A stretch of DNA of 64,000 nt from a bacterium (lineage in GTDB: Bacteria > Patescibacteriota > Minisyncoccia > UBA6257 > JAGOQP01), in the NCBI GenBank assembly GCA_021812345.1, contig JAKANP010000001.1:54979-118978 (forward strand). Direction: 5' to 3'. Of the stretch, positions 4,104 through 48,284 are shown in pieces. The number at the start of each line of letters is the position of its first letter. The stretch's first letter is position 1. The position numbers and the translations under genes are program-made. The notes under the pieces were generated by a model, which saw only the letters and a program-made list of their open reading frames with translations, had not been told where the DNA came from and searched no databases.

Positions 4104-4842
4104 GGAAGAAATAGAAATTTTGAAAGAATCGGGTAAAATTCTTTCATCGATATTAAAGACTTTAAAAAAGAAAGCGCTTGTTGGCGTCAACCTTCTTGAG
4201 CTTGAAGATTTATCGAGAAAAATGACAAAAGAGTTAGGGGCCAGGCCGTCGTTTTTGGGATATAAGCCGGATGGCGCCGACAGACCTTATCCGGCGGCTC
4301 TTTGTTTGTCTTTGAATGAAGTTATCGTTCATGGCGTTCCTAAAAATTACCAATTAAAATCGGGAGACATTCTAAAAATAGATATGGGAGTTGTTTATGA
4401 AGGAATGTATACGGATTCGGCTGTTACTGTCGGTATTGGCGAAGTTTCGTCTGTAGCAAAAAAACTTATGAATTCTACAAAAAAAGCTCTTGATGAAGCA
4501 ATTAAAATGGTAAAAATCGGAAGACATATAGGAGATATAGGATGTGTCGTAGAAAAAAGAGCGGATAAAGATGGTTTCGAGGTTATAAAAAATCTTACCG
4601 GACACGGAGTCGGTTATGAGGTTCATGAAGATCCGGTTATTTTAAATTTTGGGAGAAAAAACACCGGACCGGAGATAAAAGAAGGGATGGTTCTTGCCAT
4701 AGAGCCGATGTTCAGTATTTCAAGCGATCAGATTGTTCAAAACCAAGATGAGAGCTATTCATCCGCTGATGGGAGTTTGACCGCCCAATTTGAACACACT
4801 ATTGCGGTTACAAAAAATAAGATTATCGTTTTGACGGAGTAG
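4084..4842 (+). CDS. map: methionine aminopeptidase type I
   Basis: Pita-bread fold motifs (VIVHGVP, DIGCVV..GHGVG.EVHEDP, LAIEPM). The ATG at 4084 overlaps the adk 3' end by 20 nt and is preferred to the upstream alternative start in the ORF track. Confidence 0.87.
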   Translation: MIFLKSKEEIEILKESGKILSSILKTLKKKALVGVNLLELEDLSRKMTKELGARPSFLGYKPDGADRPYPAALCLSLNEVIVHGVPKNYQLKSGDILKIDMGVVYEGMYTDSAVTVGIGEVSSVAKKLMNSTKKALDEAIKMVKIGRHIGDIGCVVEKRADKDGFEVIKNLTGHGVGYEVHEDPVILNFGRKNTGPEIKEGMVLAIEPMFSISSDQIVQNQDESYSSADGSLTAQFEHTIAVTKNKIIVLTE

Positions 4843-4887
4843 TTATAGATTTTATTTTTTTAATATTTTTTGTGATACAATTGTTTT

Positions 4888-6159
4888 ATGAATTATTTTT
4901 ACGCCACCATGGTATCGGTCGTAGGAACAAATTTTATTAATTTTTTTAGCTCTGTTTTTGAAGCAATGTCCTTAAAAGACGTGGCTGATATTTTTTTAAC
5001 TGCCTTGATTATAGGAGGTTTTTTGTGGCTTTTTAAAAAAACTAAAAGTGTTTCTTTGGCTTTAACTTCTATTATCGGTTTTATAATATTTTATTCTGTT
5101 GCTTATTGGCTCAATCTTTACACGGTTTTAAGTATTGCTAATGCTTTTTTGGGAAGCATTGTCGTTATTTTAGTAATTGTTTTCCAAAAAGAATTAAGAC
5201 GTTTTGTCGAGTGGATAGATATTTCTGCCATCAGAAAGAGATTCTCAAAAAATATAAAAGACCAAAAAATTTCCGGAGCTAAAGACGTGATTGATGTTTT
5301 GGCTTCAACTTTTTTTACGATGGCAAAAAGAAAAATAGGAGGATTAATTGTTTTTCCAGGAATAGAGTCAATAAGTTCTTTTGTAAGCGGAGGATTTGAT
5401 TTGGATGGAAAAATTTCCGAGCCGTTGCTTTTGAGTATTTTTGACACCTCATCTCCCGGACATGACGGGGCAATAATTGTAGAGCAAGATGTGATAAAAA
5501 AATTTGGAGTCGTTTTGCCACTATCGGAAAGAGATGATTATGAAAAATTAAAACATCTTGGAACTCGTCATCGATCGGCTCTCGGACTTTCTGAAAGAAC
5601 CGACGCTCTTTGCGTGATTGTTTCTGAAGAAAAAGGAAGAGTTTCTTTGGCTTTTGACGGAGCGATTGAAGTTGTCGAATCTCCGGAAGATTTAAAAAAT
5701 AAATTAAAGACGTTTTTGAATGTTTCCGATACTAACGCCTCAAAATCGAGATTGTTAAGCGCTCAATTATTTTCAAAAATAAGAAAAAATATACCCAATG
5801 CGTTACTGGCATTGTTTTTGGCTTTAATTTTCTGGCTTTTTATAAGTTATCCTCAGCTTGGTATAATTCAAAAAGATATTTTAGCTCCGGTAGTATTTAC
5901 TAATGTCCCCGATAATGCCACTATTGACCGACTGACATATTCTCAAGTGGACCTGACTTTTTTGGGGGCGGAAAAAGATTTCCAATTGCTTGGAACAAAT
6001 AATATAAAAGCGGTGGTTGATATATCAAGTAAAGTTAATAATACGACTACTCAATATTTGTCGGTTTATCTTAAGCCGGATAATATACAATACCCGCCAT
6101 CCTTGAAATTGATCAAGATAGATCCCAGTCAGATAGAATTTAGAATTAATTTCAAATAA
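4888..6159 (+). CDS. cdaA: diadenylate cyclase CdaA fused to a C-terminal TM + YbbR/CdaR-like domain
   Basis: Three N-terminal TM helices. DAC domain with DGA (HDGAIIV) and RHR (GTRHRSALG) motifs. A fourth TM follows, then a beta-rich YbbR-like segment (...VVFTNVPDN..IDRLTYSQVDLTFLGAEKD...). Confidence 0.8.
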   Translation: MNYFYATMVSVVGTNFINFFSSVFEAMSLKDVADIFLTALIIGGFLWLFKKTKSVSLALTSIIGFIIFYSVAYWLNLYTVLSIANAFLGSIVVILVIVFQKELRRFVEWIDISAIRKRFSKNIKDQKISGAKDVIDVLASTFFTMAKRKIGGLIVFPGIESISSFVSGGFDLDGKISEPLLLSIFDTSSPGHDGAIIVEQDVIKKFGVVLPLSERDDYEKLKHLGTRHRSALGLSERTDALCVIVSEEKGRVSLAFDGAIEVVESPEDLKNKLKTFLNVSDTNASKSRLLSAQLFSKIRKNIPNALLALFLALIFWLFISYPQLGIIQKDILAPVVFTNVPDNATIDRLTYSQVDLTFLGAEKDFQLLGTNNIKAVVDISSKVNNTTTQYLSVYLKPDNIQYPPSLKLIKIDPSQIEFRINFK

Positions 6160-39655: not shown

Positions 39656-39740
39656 CTACGAAATACAAATTAACTACCCTTCGACTTCGCTCAGGGCGAG
39701 TTCCTTCCTTCGCTAAAGCTACGGAGGGCGCGCAAGTTTG

Positions 39741-39966
39741 TCATTCCAGCGGAGGCTGGAATCCAGGAAGCGTGGATCCTGAATCAAGTTCAGGATGACA
39801 AACTCTCTCGTCATTCCAGCGTATGCTGGAATCCAGGAAGCGTGGATCCTGAATCAAGTTCAGGATGACAAACTCTCTCGTCATTCCAGCGGAGGCTGGA
39901 ATCCAGAAAAGATGGATCCTGAAATAAATTCAGGATGACAAACCCTCTCGTCATTCCAGCGAAAGC
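39741..39966. repeat. Tandem array of a 70-bp unit (3 full copies plus a partial fourth), each unit containing two 8-bp hairpins
   Basis: Units at 39741-39810, 39811-39880 (67/70 identical), 39881-39950 (more diverged) and a partial copy from 39951. Each unit has attccagc-NNNN-gctggaat and atcctgaa-tcaagt-ttcaggat stems. There are no unique spacers and no ORF. Confidence 0.85.
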
Positions 39967-40046: not shown

Positions 40047-40083
40047 GCGCTGTTATGCTATAGCATAACAGTCGTGTTTTTAT
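40047..40083 (+). terminator. Perfect 22-nt palindrome (ctgttatgctatagcataacag) followed by a T-run. Possible terminator for the dcw operon
   Basis: 11-bp perfect stem with no loop mismatch, then gtcgtgTTTTTaTT. Confidence 0.35.
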
Positions 40084-40097
40084 TAGAATCAAAAGTT

Positions 40098-40178
40098 GTT
40101 AAGTATCTCACGCCGCGCCCCGTAGCAAATTCACTTTGCTATTTGGGGATCGTGAGATACTTAACGGAAGTGTTTTTT
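40098..40178. repeat. Long inverted repeat with 15-bp arms (gttaagtatctcacg ... cgtgagatacttaac) enclosing a nested hairpin, followed by T6
   Basis: Arms at 40098-40112 and 40151-40165. The internal tagcaaa ttcac tttgcta hairpin lies between them. T-run at 40173-40178. Confidence 0.6.
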
Positions 40179-40224
40179 GGGGATTGTTATTTGTAATTTG
40201 TTATTTGGGATTTATACTTTAAGC

Positions 40225-40322
40225 GTGAGGGTCGCCAAGACGGGAAGGCGCAAGACCTCGCAAGGCCTTCATCGCCGGTTCAAATCCCTACCTGCCGACA
40301 GGCAGGCGGGCCCCTCACTCCA
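40225..40322 (+). ncRNA. tRNA-like cloverleaf element of uncertain identity (possible degenerate/pseudo tRNA or novel RNA)
   Basis: 5' GUGAGGG pairs with 3' CCCUCAC followed by U-CCA. U8, A14, G18G19 and A21 are in place with a GCC/GGC D-stem. A GGUUCAAAUCC T-loop-like motif is present but has no complementary stem. A 9-bp interrupted hairpin with a GACA loop precedes the acceptor 3' strand. It does not fold as a canonical tRNA. Confidence 0.2.
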
Positions 40323-40415
40323 ACAGCACTTTTAGCTTAAGGCTCGGCATAAAGAGCCTATTTTTTATAGAAAAACATCCTTTTAAAACAACTTTTTTTG
40401 TGTTAGAGTTGTTTT

Positions 40416-47684: not shown

Positions 47685-48284
47685 TCATTGAAAAAAATTT
47701 GATTCAAATATGGGAACATAAAATCTTTCGCCGTCTTTTTGAATTGATTCAAATAAAAAAACAGAATGTGCATCAAATGAAAAATTTATATTTTCAGGAA
47801 ATGTATCTTCTATTTTCAGAATCTCTTCTTTCTTTTGTTTGTCGTTTTTTAAAACAAAACTCTCTTGCCATCGGTTGGAAAATCTGGCGACAGTCAGATG
47901 GGAATTTGTTTCATGTGTTTTATCATATTTTATCCGGCTGGAATCGAGCTCCTCTTTTATTTTTTTAGACAAGGATTTAATAAAAATATTTGTTTTCTCA
48001 TCCGTCAACAGCCAGATCATTTTAGGACTTGCCGCATCCGGAGCTATCTTTATATCGTTGATTGTAATTTTATCGGGTGCCATTTCTTTTGATATCTTAA
48101 TGAGTAATTCTTTTATTTTTAAGATGTCTGATCTGTCTGATTCTCCCAAAAACGCCAGCGTAATGTGAAGGTTTTCCTCTTTGGTAAATGACGCGAAATC
48201 TAACGAATCTTTGGCATAAGCAACGGCATTTTTAATATTATTCTTCGCAATATTTGGTAAATTTATGGCAATAAATGTTCTCAT
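47685..48284 (-). CDS. thpR: RNA 2',3'-cyclic phosphodiesterase / 2'-5' RNA ligase (2H phosphoesterase, LigT/ThpR)
   Basis: Two H-x-T/S-x motifs (HITLAFLG and SHLTVARF) in a 199-aa protein. Confidence 0.75.
   Translation of the reverse strand: MRTFIAINLPNIAKNNIKNAVAYAKDSLDFASFTKEENLHITLAFLGESDRSDILKIKELLIKISKEMAPDKITINDIKIAPDAASPKMIWLLTDEKTNIFIKSLSKKIKEELDSSRIKYDKTHETNSHLTVARFSNRWQESFVLKNDKQKKEEILKIEDTFPENINFSFDAHSVFLFESIQKDGERFYVPIFESNFFQ

Follow-up and report, generated by a model that had tools for sequence, protein, structure and literature searches.

In Bacteria, the Patescibacteria included, group I is the sole known intron type of transfer RNA (tRNA) genes besides extremely rare group II introns; the catalytic core of a group I intron, with about 10 helical elements, takes up roughly 100 nt, and the intron is located in the anticodon loop (PMC4033280, PMC13011429). 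Introns of the D- and T-arms bounded by a bulge-helix-bulge motif have been described in Archaea (Thermoproteales, ARMAN) and in Cyanidioschyzon merolae (PMC4033280, PMC9602550, PMC3241643). Those of the T-arm are known from Archaea and a red alga only, and they depend on a splicing endonuclease (PMC4033280, PMC9602550). Here, we analyzed a 64,000-nt stretch of a patescibacterial contig (JAKANP010000001.1, positions 54,979 to 118,978 of the forward strand), hereafter called the window. A 98-nt element at window positions 40225-40322 of the plus strand, which reads GUGAGGGUCGCCAAGACGGGAAGGCGCAAGACCUCGCAAGGCCUUCAUCGCCGGUUCAAAUCCCUACCUGCCGACAGGCAGGCGGGCCCCUCACUCCA, is almost certainly, judged by sequence comparison, the orthologue of the tRNA-Cys(GCA) gene of its clade, with 21 extra nucleotides that split the T-stem.

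Compared with the described systems, the element resembles the archaeal T-arm introns in position only. Like the bulge-helix-bulge introns of the T-arm, it has a short T-arm insert in an otherwise complete gene that becomes callable after in silico removal of the insert; unlike them, it stands in a bacterial host, with no such motif at the junctions and no splicing endonuclease known or seen. It shares with the intron-bearing tRNA genes of Patescibacteria (PMC13011429) the phylum and the fact that an intervening sequence hides the gene from annotation tools, but those introns are self-splicing ribozymes of the anticodon loop while here 21 nt without family match are found in the T-stem. Prokaryotic tRNA pseudogenes and fragments (PMC9897764) likewise fail canonical structure rules and show an accelerated divergence, whereas the element is full-length, has its own promoter and terminator, a perfect acceptor stem and clustered changes, and is not a 3' fragment beside an integrated element. 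As in +1 frameshift suppressors with 8-nt anticodon loops, e.g., SufB2 (PMC7803779), one extra nucleotide is present in the loop and ARAGORN reads a 4-base anticodon, CGCA; in contrast to SufB2, nothing points to quadruplet decoding, the extra U is located 5' of C33, outside the anticodon, and further lesions are present. Our literature search brought up no account of short insertions in the T-stem of bacterial tRNA genes, nor of T-arm inserts or C33 in bacterial tRNA-Cys.

The element can also be compared with the canonical tRNA-Cys(GCA) genes of its relatives (loci L083, L097, L094, L086, and L095). The slot on the genome, the promoter, and the terminator are shared with these genes, and so are the acceptor stem, the D-stem, the variable loop, the T-stem and T-loop nucleotides, U73, the GCA anticodon, and A37. 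It differs from these orthologs by a hairpin between standard positions 62 and 63, by an anticodon arm that is 2 nt longer and contains an A·C pair and an 8-nt loop, and by the fact that generic finders miss it.

Identity and architecture of the element

The relatives were found via GluRS homologs in a large protein database, in a series ranging from 90% to 56% identity, and the flanking DNA of each was fetched. The nearest species-representative genomes have a GluRS 42-54% identical to that of the window, and by its GluRS the host belongs to Patescibacteria, close to Paceibacterota and Wolfebacteria. In relatives of the GluRS series, a 74-75-nt tRNA-Cys(GCA) gene occupies the same slot 5' of gltX, with murG or a pilin-like gene on its other side. 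The loci bearing it encode a GluRS sharing ~89-90% (L083/L084), 78% (L085), 76% (L094/L092), 75% (L086/87/90/91), 74% (L095), and 71% (L097) identity with that of the window, and ARAGORN calls a tRNA-Cys(GCA) at L083, L086, L094, L095, L097, and L090-92. No variation was seen among the orthologs in the 5' 15 nt, the D-stem, the variable loop, the T-stem, the acceptor 3' strand, or U73, nor in GCA and A37; four ortholog-invariant positions are altered in the window copy. The 5' 15 nt of the latter and, insert aside, its 3' 32 nt are identical to those of L083 and L097.

A covariance model (R1) was built solely from seven orthologous tRNAs of the relatives. It matches exactly positions 40225-40322 with 52.9 bits (E 1.8e-12, model positions 1-74), which is the top match in the 64-kb window, the orthologs themselves scoring 93-105 bits. 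The alignment contains a local insertion in the T-arm and flags the non-standard pair and the inserted nucleotides of the anticodon arm. After removal of the 21-nt insert, ARAGORN calls a tRNA with the 4-base anticodon 'cgca' (8-nt loop CUCGCAAG), and removal of both the insert and the extra loop U leads to a tRNA-Cys(GCA) call. The orthologs, the R1 match and these calls on the edited sequence all indicate that the element is a tRNA-Cys by descent. The identity set recognized by CysRS consists of the U73 discriminator and the GCA anticodon, and the element has both. At distant GluRS loci (GTDB, distant genomes of the Candidate Phyla Radiation (CPR)), we detected neither a homologous element nor a tRNA 5' of gltX; the tRNA-gltX linkage is clade-specific. 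A metagenome scan with the invariant 5' 22-nt pattern returned 3 loci alone, all canonical.

The whole tRNA-Cys(GCA)-derived gene, encoded CCA included, covers 40225-40322 as delimited by R1 and synteny. Its acceptor stem is a perfect 7-bp helix between GUGAGGG (40225-40231, element positions 1-7), a strand invariant in 7/7 orthologs, and CCCUCAC (40312-40318, element positions 88-94), which is followed by U95 and then C96, C97, and A98. U8 is present, and the D-arm GCC-AAGACGGGAA-GGC (40234-40249), with A14, G18, G19, and A21, is normal with its 3-bp stem; it aligns to the D-arm of the covariance model with high posterior probability and differs from the L083 D-arm at just two D-loop positions. 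The remodelled anticodon arm (40250-40269) comprises G26 and an extra C, a stem AAGAC/GCCUU made of four Watson-Crick pairs and one A·C, and the 8-nt loop CUCGCAAG, with the GCA anticodon at 40260-40262. The variable loop CAUC, the T-stem 5' strand GCCGG, the T-loop UUCAAAU, and C61 C62 follow at 40270-40287 and are identical in L083 and L097; the T-loop motif GGUUCAAAUCC corresponds to element positions 53-63. The 21-nt insert CUACCUGCCGACAGGCAGGCG, missing from all orthologs, occupies 40288-40308, and the remaining GGC of the T-stem 3' strand, the acceptor 3' strand CCCUCAC, the discriminator U73 (40319), and the encoded CCA (40309-40322 altogether) are again identical in L083 and L097. Where these two relatives read GCCGGUUCAAAUCC joined directly to GGCCCCUCACUCCA, the window reads GCCGGUUCAAAUCC, then CUACCUGCCGACAGGCAGGCG, then GGCCCCUCACUCCA, and the junctions of the insertion (62/63) are unambiguous. 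Two other independent assemblies, obtained from different samples, contain the element with 100% identity.

The original prediction, made from the letters of the window, had listed acceptor pairing, U8/A14/G18G19/A21, a T-loop motif, and a GACA hairpin, and all of these features are present at 40225-40322. It had also described the T-loop motif as lacking a stem and the hairpin as sitting in the T-arm position. The motif is there, but so is its stem, which is split by the insert: GCCGG (50-54) pairs with CC (62-63) and then, past the 21 nt, with GGC (85-87), and in silico removal of positions 64-84 gives GCCGG-UUCAAAU-CCGGC stacked on the acceptor stem. The hairpin corresponds to the insert, and the true T-arm is present in two parts. 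RNAfold draws an interrupted 9-bp GACA-loop hairpin, composed of C63C64U65/G84G85G86 and CCUGCC/GGCAGG.

The element does escape the standard detectors. ARAGORN called no tRNA at 40225-40322, while it found three ordinary tRNAs elsewhere in the window (Thr-CGU, Gln-UUG, and Gln-CUG), and Rfam searches gave no tRNA match for the element, either at gathering thresholds or at E<=10, tRNA-Sec included; the weak Rfam matches obtained (SdsR/SraG) correspond to the terminator only. Compared with the canonical tRNA family (RF00005), the acceptor stem, discriminator, and CCA are all in place, as is the D-arm with U8, A14, G18 G19, and A21. The anticodon arm lacks the 5-bp stem and 7-nt loop with U33, as it has an 8-nt loop, or 7 nt with a bulged C. 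The T-stem is not contiguous, all 10 stem nucleotides and the T-loop UUCAAAU being present with the 3' strand split by 21 nt, and the score of the element falls below the threshold of generic detectors.

The insert forms a perfect 6-bp hairpin, CCUGCC-GACA-GGCAGG, has a GC content of 71% in a genome at 35% GC, and is unique within the window. A local templated origin was rejected because no match of at least 8 nt was found within +/-2 kb. A comparison with Rfam families, introns, and ribozymes (E<=10) gave no match. A group I intron was rejected, the insert being 21 nt long, located in the T-stem and without Rfam intron match. An archaeal-type bulge-helix-bulge intron (two 3-nt bulges and a 4-bp helix) was rejected by enumeration of all registers around both junctions, since at most 2 of the 4 central-helix pairs form. 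The 21-nt insert thus fits neither a bacterial group I nor an archaeal-type intron.

The element had also been proposed to be a former integration target explaining the adjacent repeats. This idea found no support: the tandem array at 39740-39961 lies upstream of the promoter and has no sequence in common with the insert, no integrase is found among the genes annotated in and around the window, and the insert does not occur in IMG/VR viral contigs. A mobile-element or attachment-site origin was rejected on the same evidence, together with the uniqueness of the insert in the window. Where viral sequences match the 3' end of the tRNA, they are ordinary tRNA-Cys genes of phages, located in tRNA arrays. 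One viral contig with such a match (IMGVR_UViG_3300010354_007451, L100:5132-12326) carries 37 tRNA genes in about 7 kb; one tRNA-Cys of this array shares the acceptor stem GUGAGGG/CCCUCAC, U73, and CCA with the element, and one of its tRNAs is given a 4-base anticodon (tacc) by ARAGORN.

Remodelling of the window copy and parallel cases in the clade

The anticodon arm reads A-AUGGU-CCGCAAG-ACCAU in L097 and GC-AAGAC-CUCGCAAG-GCCUU in the window, the latter being 2 nt longer due to one extra nucleotide at 26/27 and one extra loop U. In two pairs both partners have changed and pairing is kept (U-A to A-U and U-A to C-G), and one pair is broken (G-C to A·C). Such an arm may have arisen via a tandem 10-mer duplication (GCAAGACCUC / GCAAGGCCUU), which is no more parsimonious than the alternative because an extra 8-nt deletion is needed, compared with 6 substitutions and 2 single-nucleotide insertions. 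Over its full length, the new 3' strand GCCUUC can pair with GAAGGC of the D-arm region, and because of this RNAfold prefers a GAAGGC/GCCUUC helix. The cloverleaf(-plus-hairpin) lies 9.0 kcal/mol above the minimum free energy (MFE) in the window copy and 0.3-4.5 kcal/mol above it in the orthologs, and the mean pair probability of the cloverleaf is 0.53 in the former and 0.62-0.93 in the latter.

When the insert is ignored, the window copy and L083 (GluRS ~89-90%) differ at 11 alignment columns. In comparison, we counted 1 difference between L083 and L097 (GluRS 72%), 0 between L086 and L095 (86%), and 4 between L086 and L094 (90%). By these counts, the window gene has clearly evolved faster, about 3-10 times, than in comparably close lineages. 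The substitutions are not spread over the gene: the D-loop, position 26, and the anticodon arm account for 8/8 and the other ~44 positions for 0 (P about 5e-4); for random mutation, the P of two compensated pairs among 5 stem substitutions is about 0.05. With 99.96-100% identity, the assemblies offer no informative polymorphism in the gene.

A second interrupted gene was found among the relatives. At L096 (positions 724-891; JGI 3300047582, Ga0502071_01187; GluRS 72%), the orthologous tRNA-Cys gene is 168 nt long. Its 5' 50 nt, with the anticodon arm typical of the clade, and its 3' acceptor strand are preserved; the T-loop region has gained an insert of about 95 nt, in which a second GUCGG(G) could pair with the 3' CCCGAC. 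ARAGORN makes no call for this gene, and no credible Rfam family, ribozyme, or intron matches its insert. With the acceptor stem enforced, the fold is 1.2 kcal/mol above its own MFE. This T-arm interruption of the same tRNA-Cys gene is an independent one, and two such interruptions are now observed, namely, the 21-nt hairpin at 62/63 and the about 95 nt in the L096 T-loop. At L088/L089 (GluRS 71%), the region 4713-6000 has no tRNA in the slot 5' of gltX, and 44 nt separate gltX from the end of a 414-aa pilin-like (N_methyl) gene; that genome must have its tRNA-Cys at another place or have lost it.

The anticodon loop varies as well. U33 is near-universal in tRNA anticodon loops. Five loci have the loop CCGCAAG with C33, in which C32 and G38 could pair (L083:1532-1606, L097:1193-1267, L094:1358-1431, L092:1132-1205 on the minus strand, and L096:724-773), and L085:5853-5927 has an 8-nt loop CCUGCAAG, reported by ARAGORN as 'tRNA-???'. 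The canonical loop CUGCAAA is found in L086, L095, L090, and L091 only. The gene of this slot thus shows unusual variation of the anticodon loop and T-arm, with a frozen acceptor stem and D-arm.

A disabled copy or a working tRNA-Cys

The original prediction offered a decayed tRNA and an unusual functional tRNA among its explanations; the derivation from a tRNA stands, and both options are still live. We lean toward a recently disabled or strongly impaired tRNA-Cys copy, with another tRNA-Cys elsewhere in the genome. The two structural lesions, the predicted misfold, the rate acceleration, the young insert, and the lack of a known removal mechanism make this the most likely explanation. The insert would turn the acceptor/T minihelix into a three-way junction, and it stands on the 3' strand of the T-stem, in the part that EF-Tu contacts. 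The D/anticodon domain is predicted to misfold, and we know of no bacterial mechanism for the removal of a 21-nt insert that is not a group I intron. For these three reasons, the lesions would most likely leave a poor or inactive elongator tRNA, in which case Cys decoding would rely on another tRNA-Cys gene located beyond the window. The damage would be recent since the acceptor stem, the D-stem, the variable loop, the T-loop, the discriminator, CCA, the promoter, and the terminator are intact, and the insert is young since it is missing from the closest relative, L083. A disabled copy is also supported by the slot gene being dispensable or relocated in L088 and by the different disruption of its T-arm in L096.

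Several observations weigh against a disabled copy. No second tRNA-Cys was found within the 64-kb window and ~9 kb upstream of it (tuf/ribosomal-protein operon), ~73 kb in all. Cys codons are in normal use, with 92 out of 18,137 codons (0.51%) in the large open reading frames of the window, and three conserved cysteines of GluRS and two of the M23 peptidase are retained in both the window and L096. This continued use of Cys codons requires a working tRNA-Cys somewhere; Patescibacteria usually have one gene per tRNA, and if the element is the sole tRNA-Cys copy, it must work. Moreover, its substitutions are clustered, unlike in neutral decay, with two anticodon-stem pairs compensated, the perfect GC-rich hairpin is placed so that both T-stem halves stay intact, and the promoter and terminator are conserved.

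These same observations would fit a working interrupted tRNA-Cys, an explanation that we hold tentatively and consider rather doubtful. In such a tRNA, the hairpin would be tolerated as an extra branch of the T-stem, or excised or nicked after transcription, and the 8-nt loop would present GCA. All the parts that are intact in the element, U73 and CCA among them, argue for this, as do changes limited to the anticodon arm and D-loop with a partly compensated stem, a clean hairpin between T-stem halves that are still complementary, and the independent T-loop insert of L096 in a gene otherwise intact. Functional tRNA genes masked by unusual intervening sequences are indeed known from Patescibacteria (PMC13011429), and a gene for a LigT/ThpR-family 2H phosphoesterase 7 kb off is a weak lead only. 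However, no excision of 21 nt is known in Bacteria, the insert has neither a bulge-helix-bulge nor a ribozyme or intron family match, and its position on the T-stem 3' strand is one of EF-Tu contact. The A·C mismatch, the 8-nt loop, and the thermodynamically disfavoured cloverleaf also speak against it, together with an insert that is young and not conserved (L083 is without it) and the accelerated rate. In broader terms, it is possible, though we would not expect it, that some Patescibacteria carry working tRNA genes with short T-arm inserts which are neither group I nor bulge-helix-bulge introns.

An improbable variant of a functional element is a repurposed tRNA-like RNA under altered selection, which would have kept GCA and the features needed for charging, RNase P, and the CCA enzyme while ribosomal decoding was relaxed. 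It could, for example, donate Cys in a reaction outside the ribosome or serve as a regulatory decoy, with the hairpin acting as an EF-Tu anti-determinant; the non-proteinogenic tRNA-Gly of staphylococci evade EF-Tu via T-stem changes. This proposal would account for acceptor, D, and T parts that are strongly conserved while the anticodon arm changes fast, and for GCA and A37 being invariant while position 33 and the loop size vary (CCGCAAG, CCUGCAAG, CUCGCAAG); the neighbouring cell-wall genes ftsW, murG, and M23 peptidase also agree with it. It is purely inferential, though, and no Fem/MurM-type transferase or other enzyme using aminoacyl-tRNA was identified in the annotated part of the window. 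The T-arms of the relatives are canonical, so a new role would be specific to this strain, and the predicted D/anticodon misfolding would also harm recognition by CysRS. Taken together, a functional tRNA, either interrupted or repurposed, is a serious possibility to which we give less than even weight.

The two remaining explanations have next to no probability. The original prediction had noted a length typical of tRNA-Sec or class-II tRNAs (Leu/Ser/Tyr, with a long extra arm); besides the 98 nt, a UCA triplet in GGUUCAAAUCC could be taken in favour of tRNA-Sec. This UCA is part of a textbook T-loop with G53-C61 as its closing pair, the acceptor stem has 7 bp instead of 8, the D-stem 3 bp instead of 6, and a 4-nt variable loop is found in place of a long arm, the extra hairpin being located 3' of the T-loop, inside the T-stem. 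The extra length is thus that of the T-stem insert, GCA and U73 fit Cys, no Rfam tRNA-Sec or tRNA model matches at E<=10, and the comparison with the orthologs, which are ordinary 74-75-nt tRNA-Cys(GCA), refutes a tRNA-Sec or class-II origin. A chance resemblance or an assembly artefact would explain the failure of standard tRNA finders and that failure alone; it is refuted by the full-length match of the clade-specific covariance model (E about 2e-12), by identical sequences in two independent assemblies, and by synteny with the orthologs.

The element is ordinary if it is a pseudogene and notable if it is the only tRNA-Cys. A decaying copy would be a minor finding, showing that streamlined Patescibacteria too carry young tRNA pseudogenes and that a tRNA-Cys missing from an annotation can mean a disrupted gene and not a true absence. 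If it were the sole tRNA-Cys, a bacterial elongator tRNA would work with, or be processed from, a T-stem insertion, a situation undescribed for Bacteria, which would extend the finding that essential tRNA genes of Patescibacteria stand behind unusual intervening sequences (PMC13011429). Working genes interrupted in the T-arm would form a new class of disrupted bacterial tRNA genes, invisible to standard annotation. With the L096 insert and the C33 and 8-nt loops found across the clade, this tRNA-Cys family would be an inexpensive test case.

Transcription unit and neighbouring sequences

The element lies in a 760-nt gap between murG and gltX, in the gene order ftsW, murG, gltX, and M23 peptidase. 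A sigma70-like promoter, TTGTAA, 16-nt spacer, TATACT, is predicted at 40191-40218 (+), with a transcription start ~6-7 nt past it, at or beside G1 of the tRNA; its -10 region GATTTATACTTT is kept in L083 and L097, and similar in L096. An intrinsic terminator, AGGCUC-GGCAUAAA-GAGCCU followed by a U-run, is predicted at 40340-40366 (+) and is homologous in L083 and L097. With these two signals, the element has the appearance of a stand-alone small-RNA gene. Downstream of it, gltX is preceded by a conserved promoter of its own, TGTGTTAGAAT. The suggestion of a tRNA-like processing or entry signal was not borne out, given the promoter and terminator of the element and the separate gltX promoter, and a cis-regulatory (T-box-like) gltX leader was likewise rejected on account of the terminator, the gltX promoter, and orthologs that are plain tRNAs.

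A 199-aa protein of the LigT/ThpR-type 2H phosphoesterases ('2'-5' RNA ligase' family; PF02834, E 1e-11) is encoded at 47685-48284 on the minus strand. Members of the LigT/ThpR family act on 2',3'-cyclic phosphate ends of RNA; for processing of the element, the gene is a weak lead only.

The sequences upstream of the element are rich in repeats. A 14-nt unit, TGTTATTTGGGATT, in ~3 copies (75% matches) covers 40171-40213 (+) and spans the -35 box and spacer of the promoter; the string TTTGTTATTTGGGATTTATACTTT of this repeat is also kept upstream of the L097 tRNA. Just 5' of the promoter, at 40098-40165 (+), a perfect 15-bp inverted repeat, GTTAAGTATCTCACG...CGTGAGATACTTAAC, encloses a 38-nt spacer, and a terminator-like 10-bp hairpin with a T-run lies 5' of it at 40049-40072. 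Further upstream in the murG-tRNA gap, the tandem array at 39740-39961 (+) repeats a 70-nt unit 3.2 times (92% matches), and every unit has two hairpins, ATTCCAGCGGAGGCTGGAAT and ATCCTGAATCAAGTTCAGGAT. No further copy of this unit was found in the window or in any fetched locus. In the assembly L001, otherwise 99.96% identical, the array is exactly 70 nt shorter, with 2 and not 3 unit-start matches, indicating that its copy number varies between strains. The tandem array, the inverted repeat, and the hairpin fill the 760-nt gap, which in the relatives measures merely 150-340 nt.

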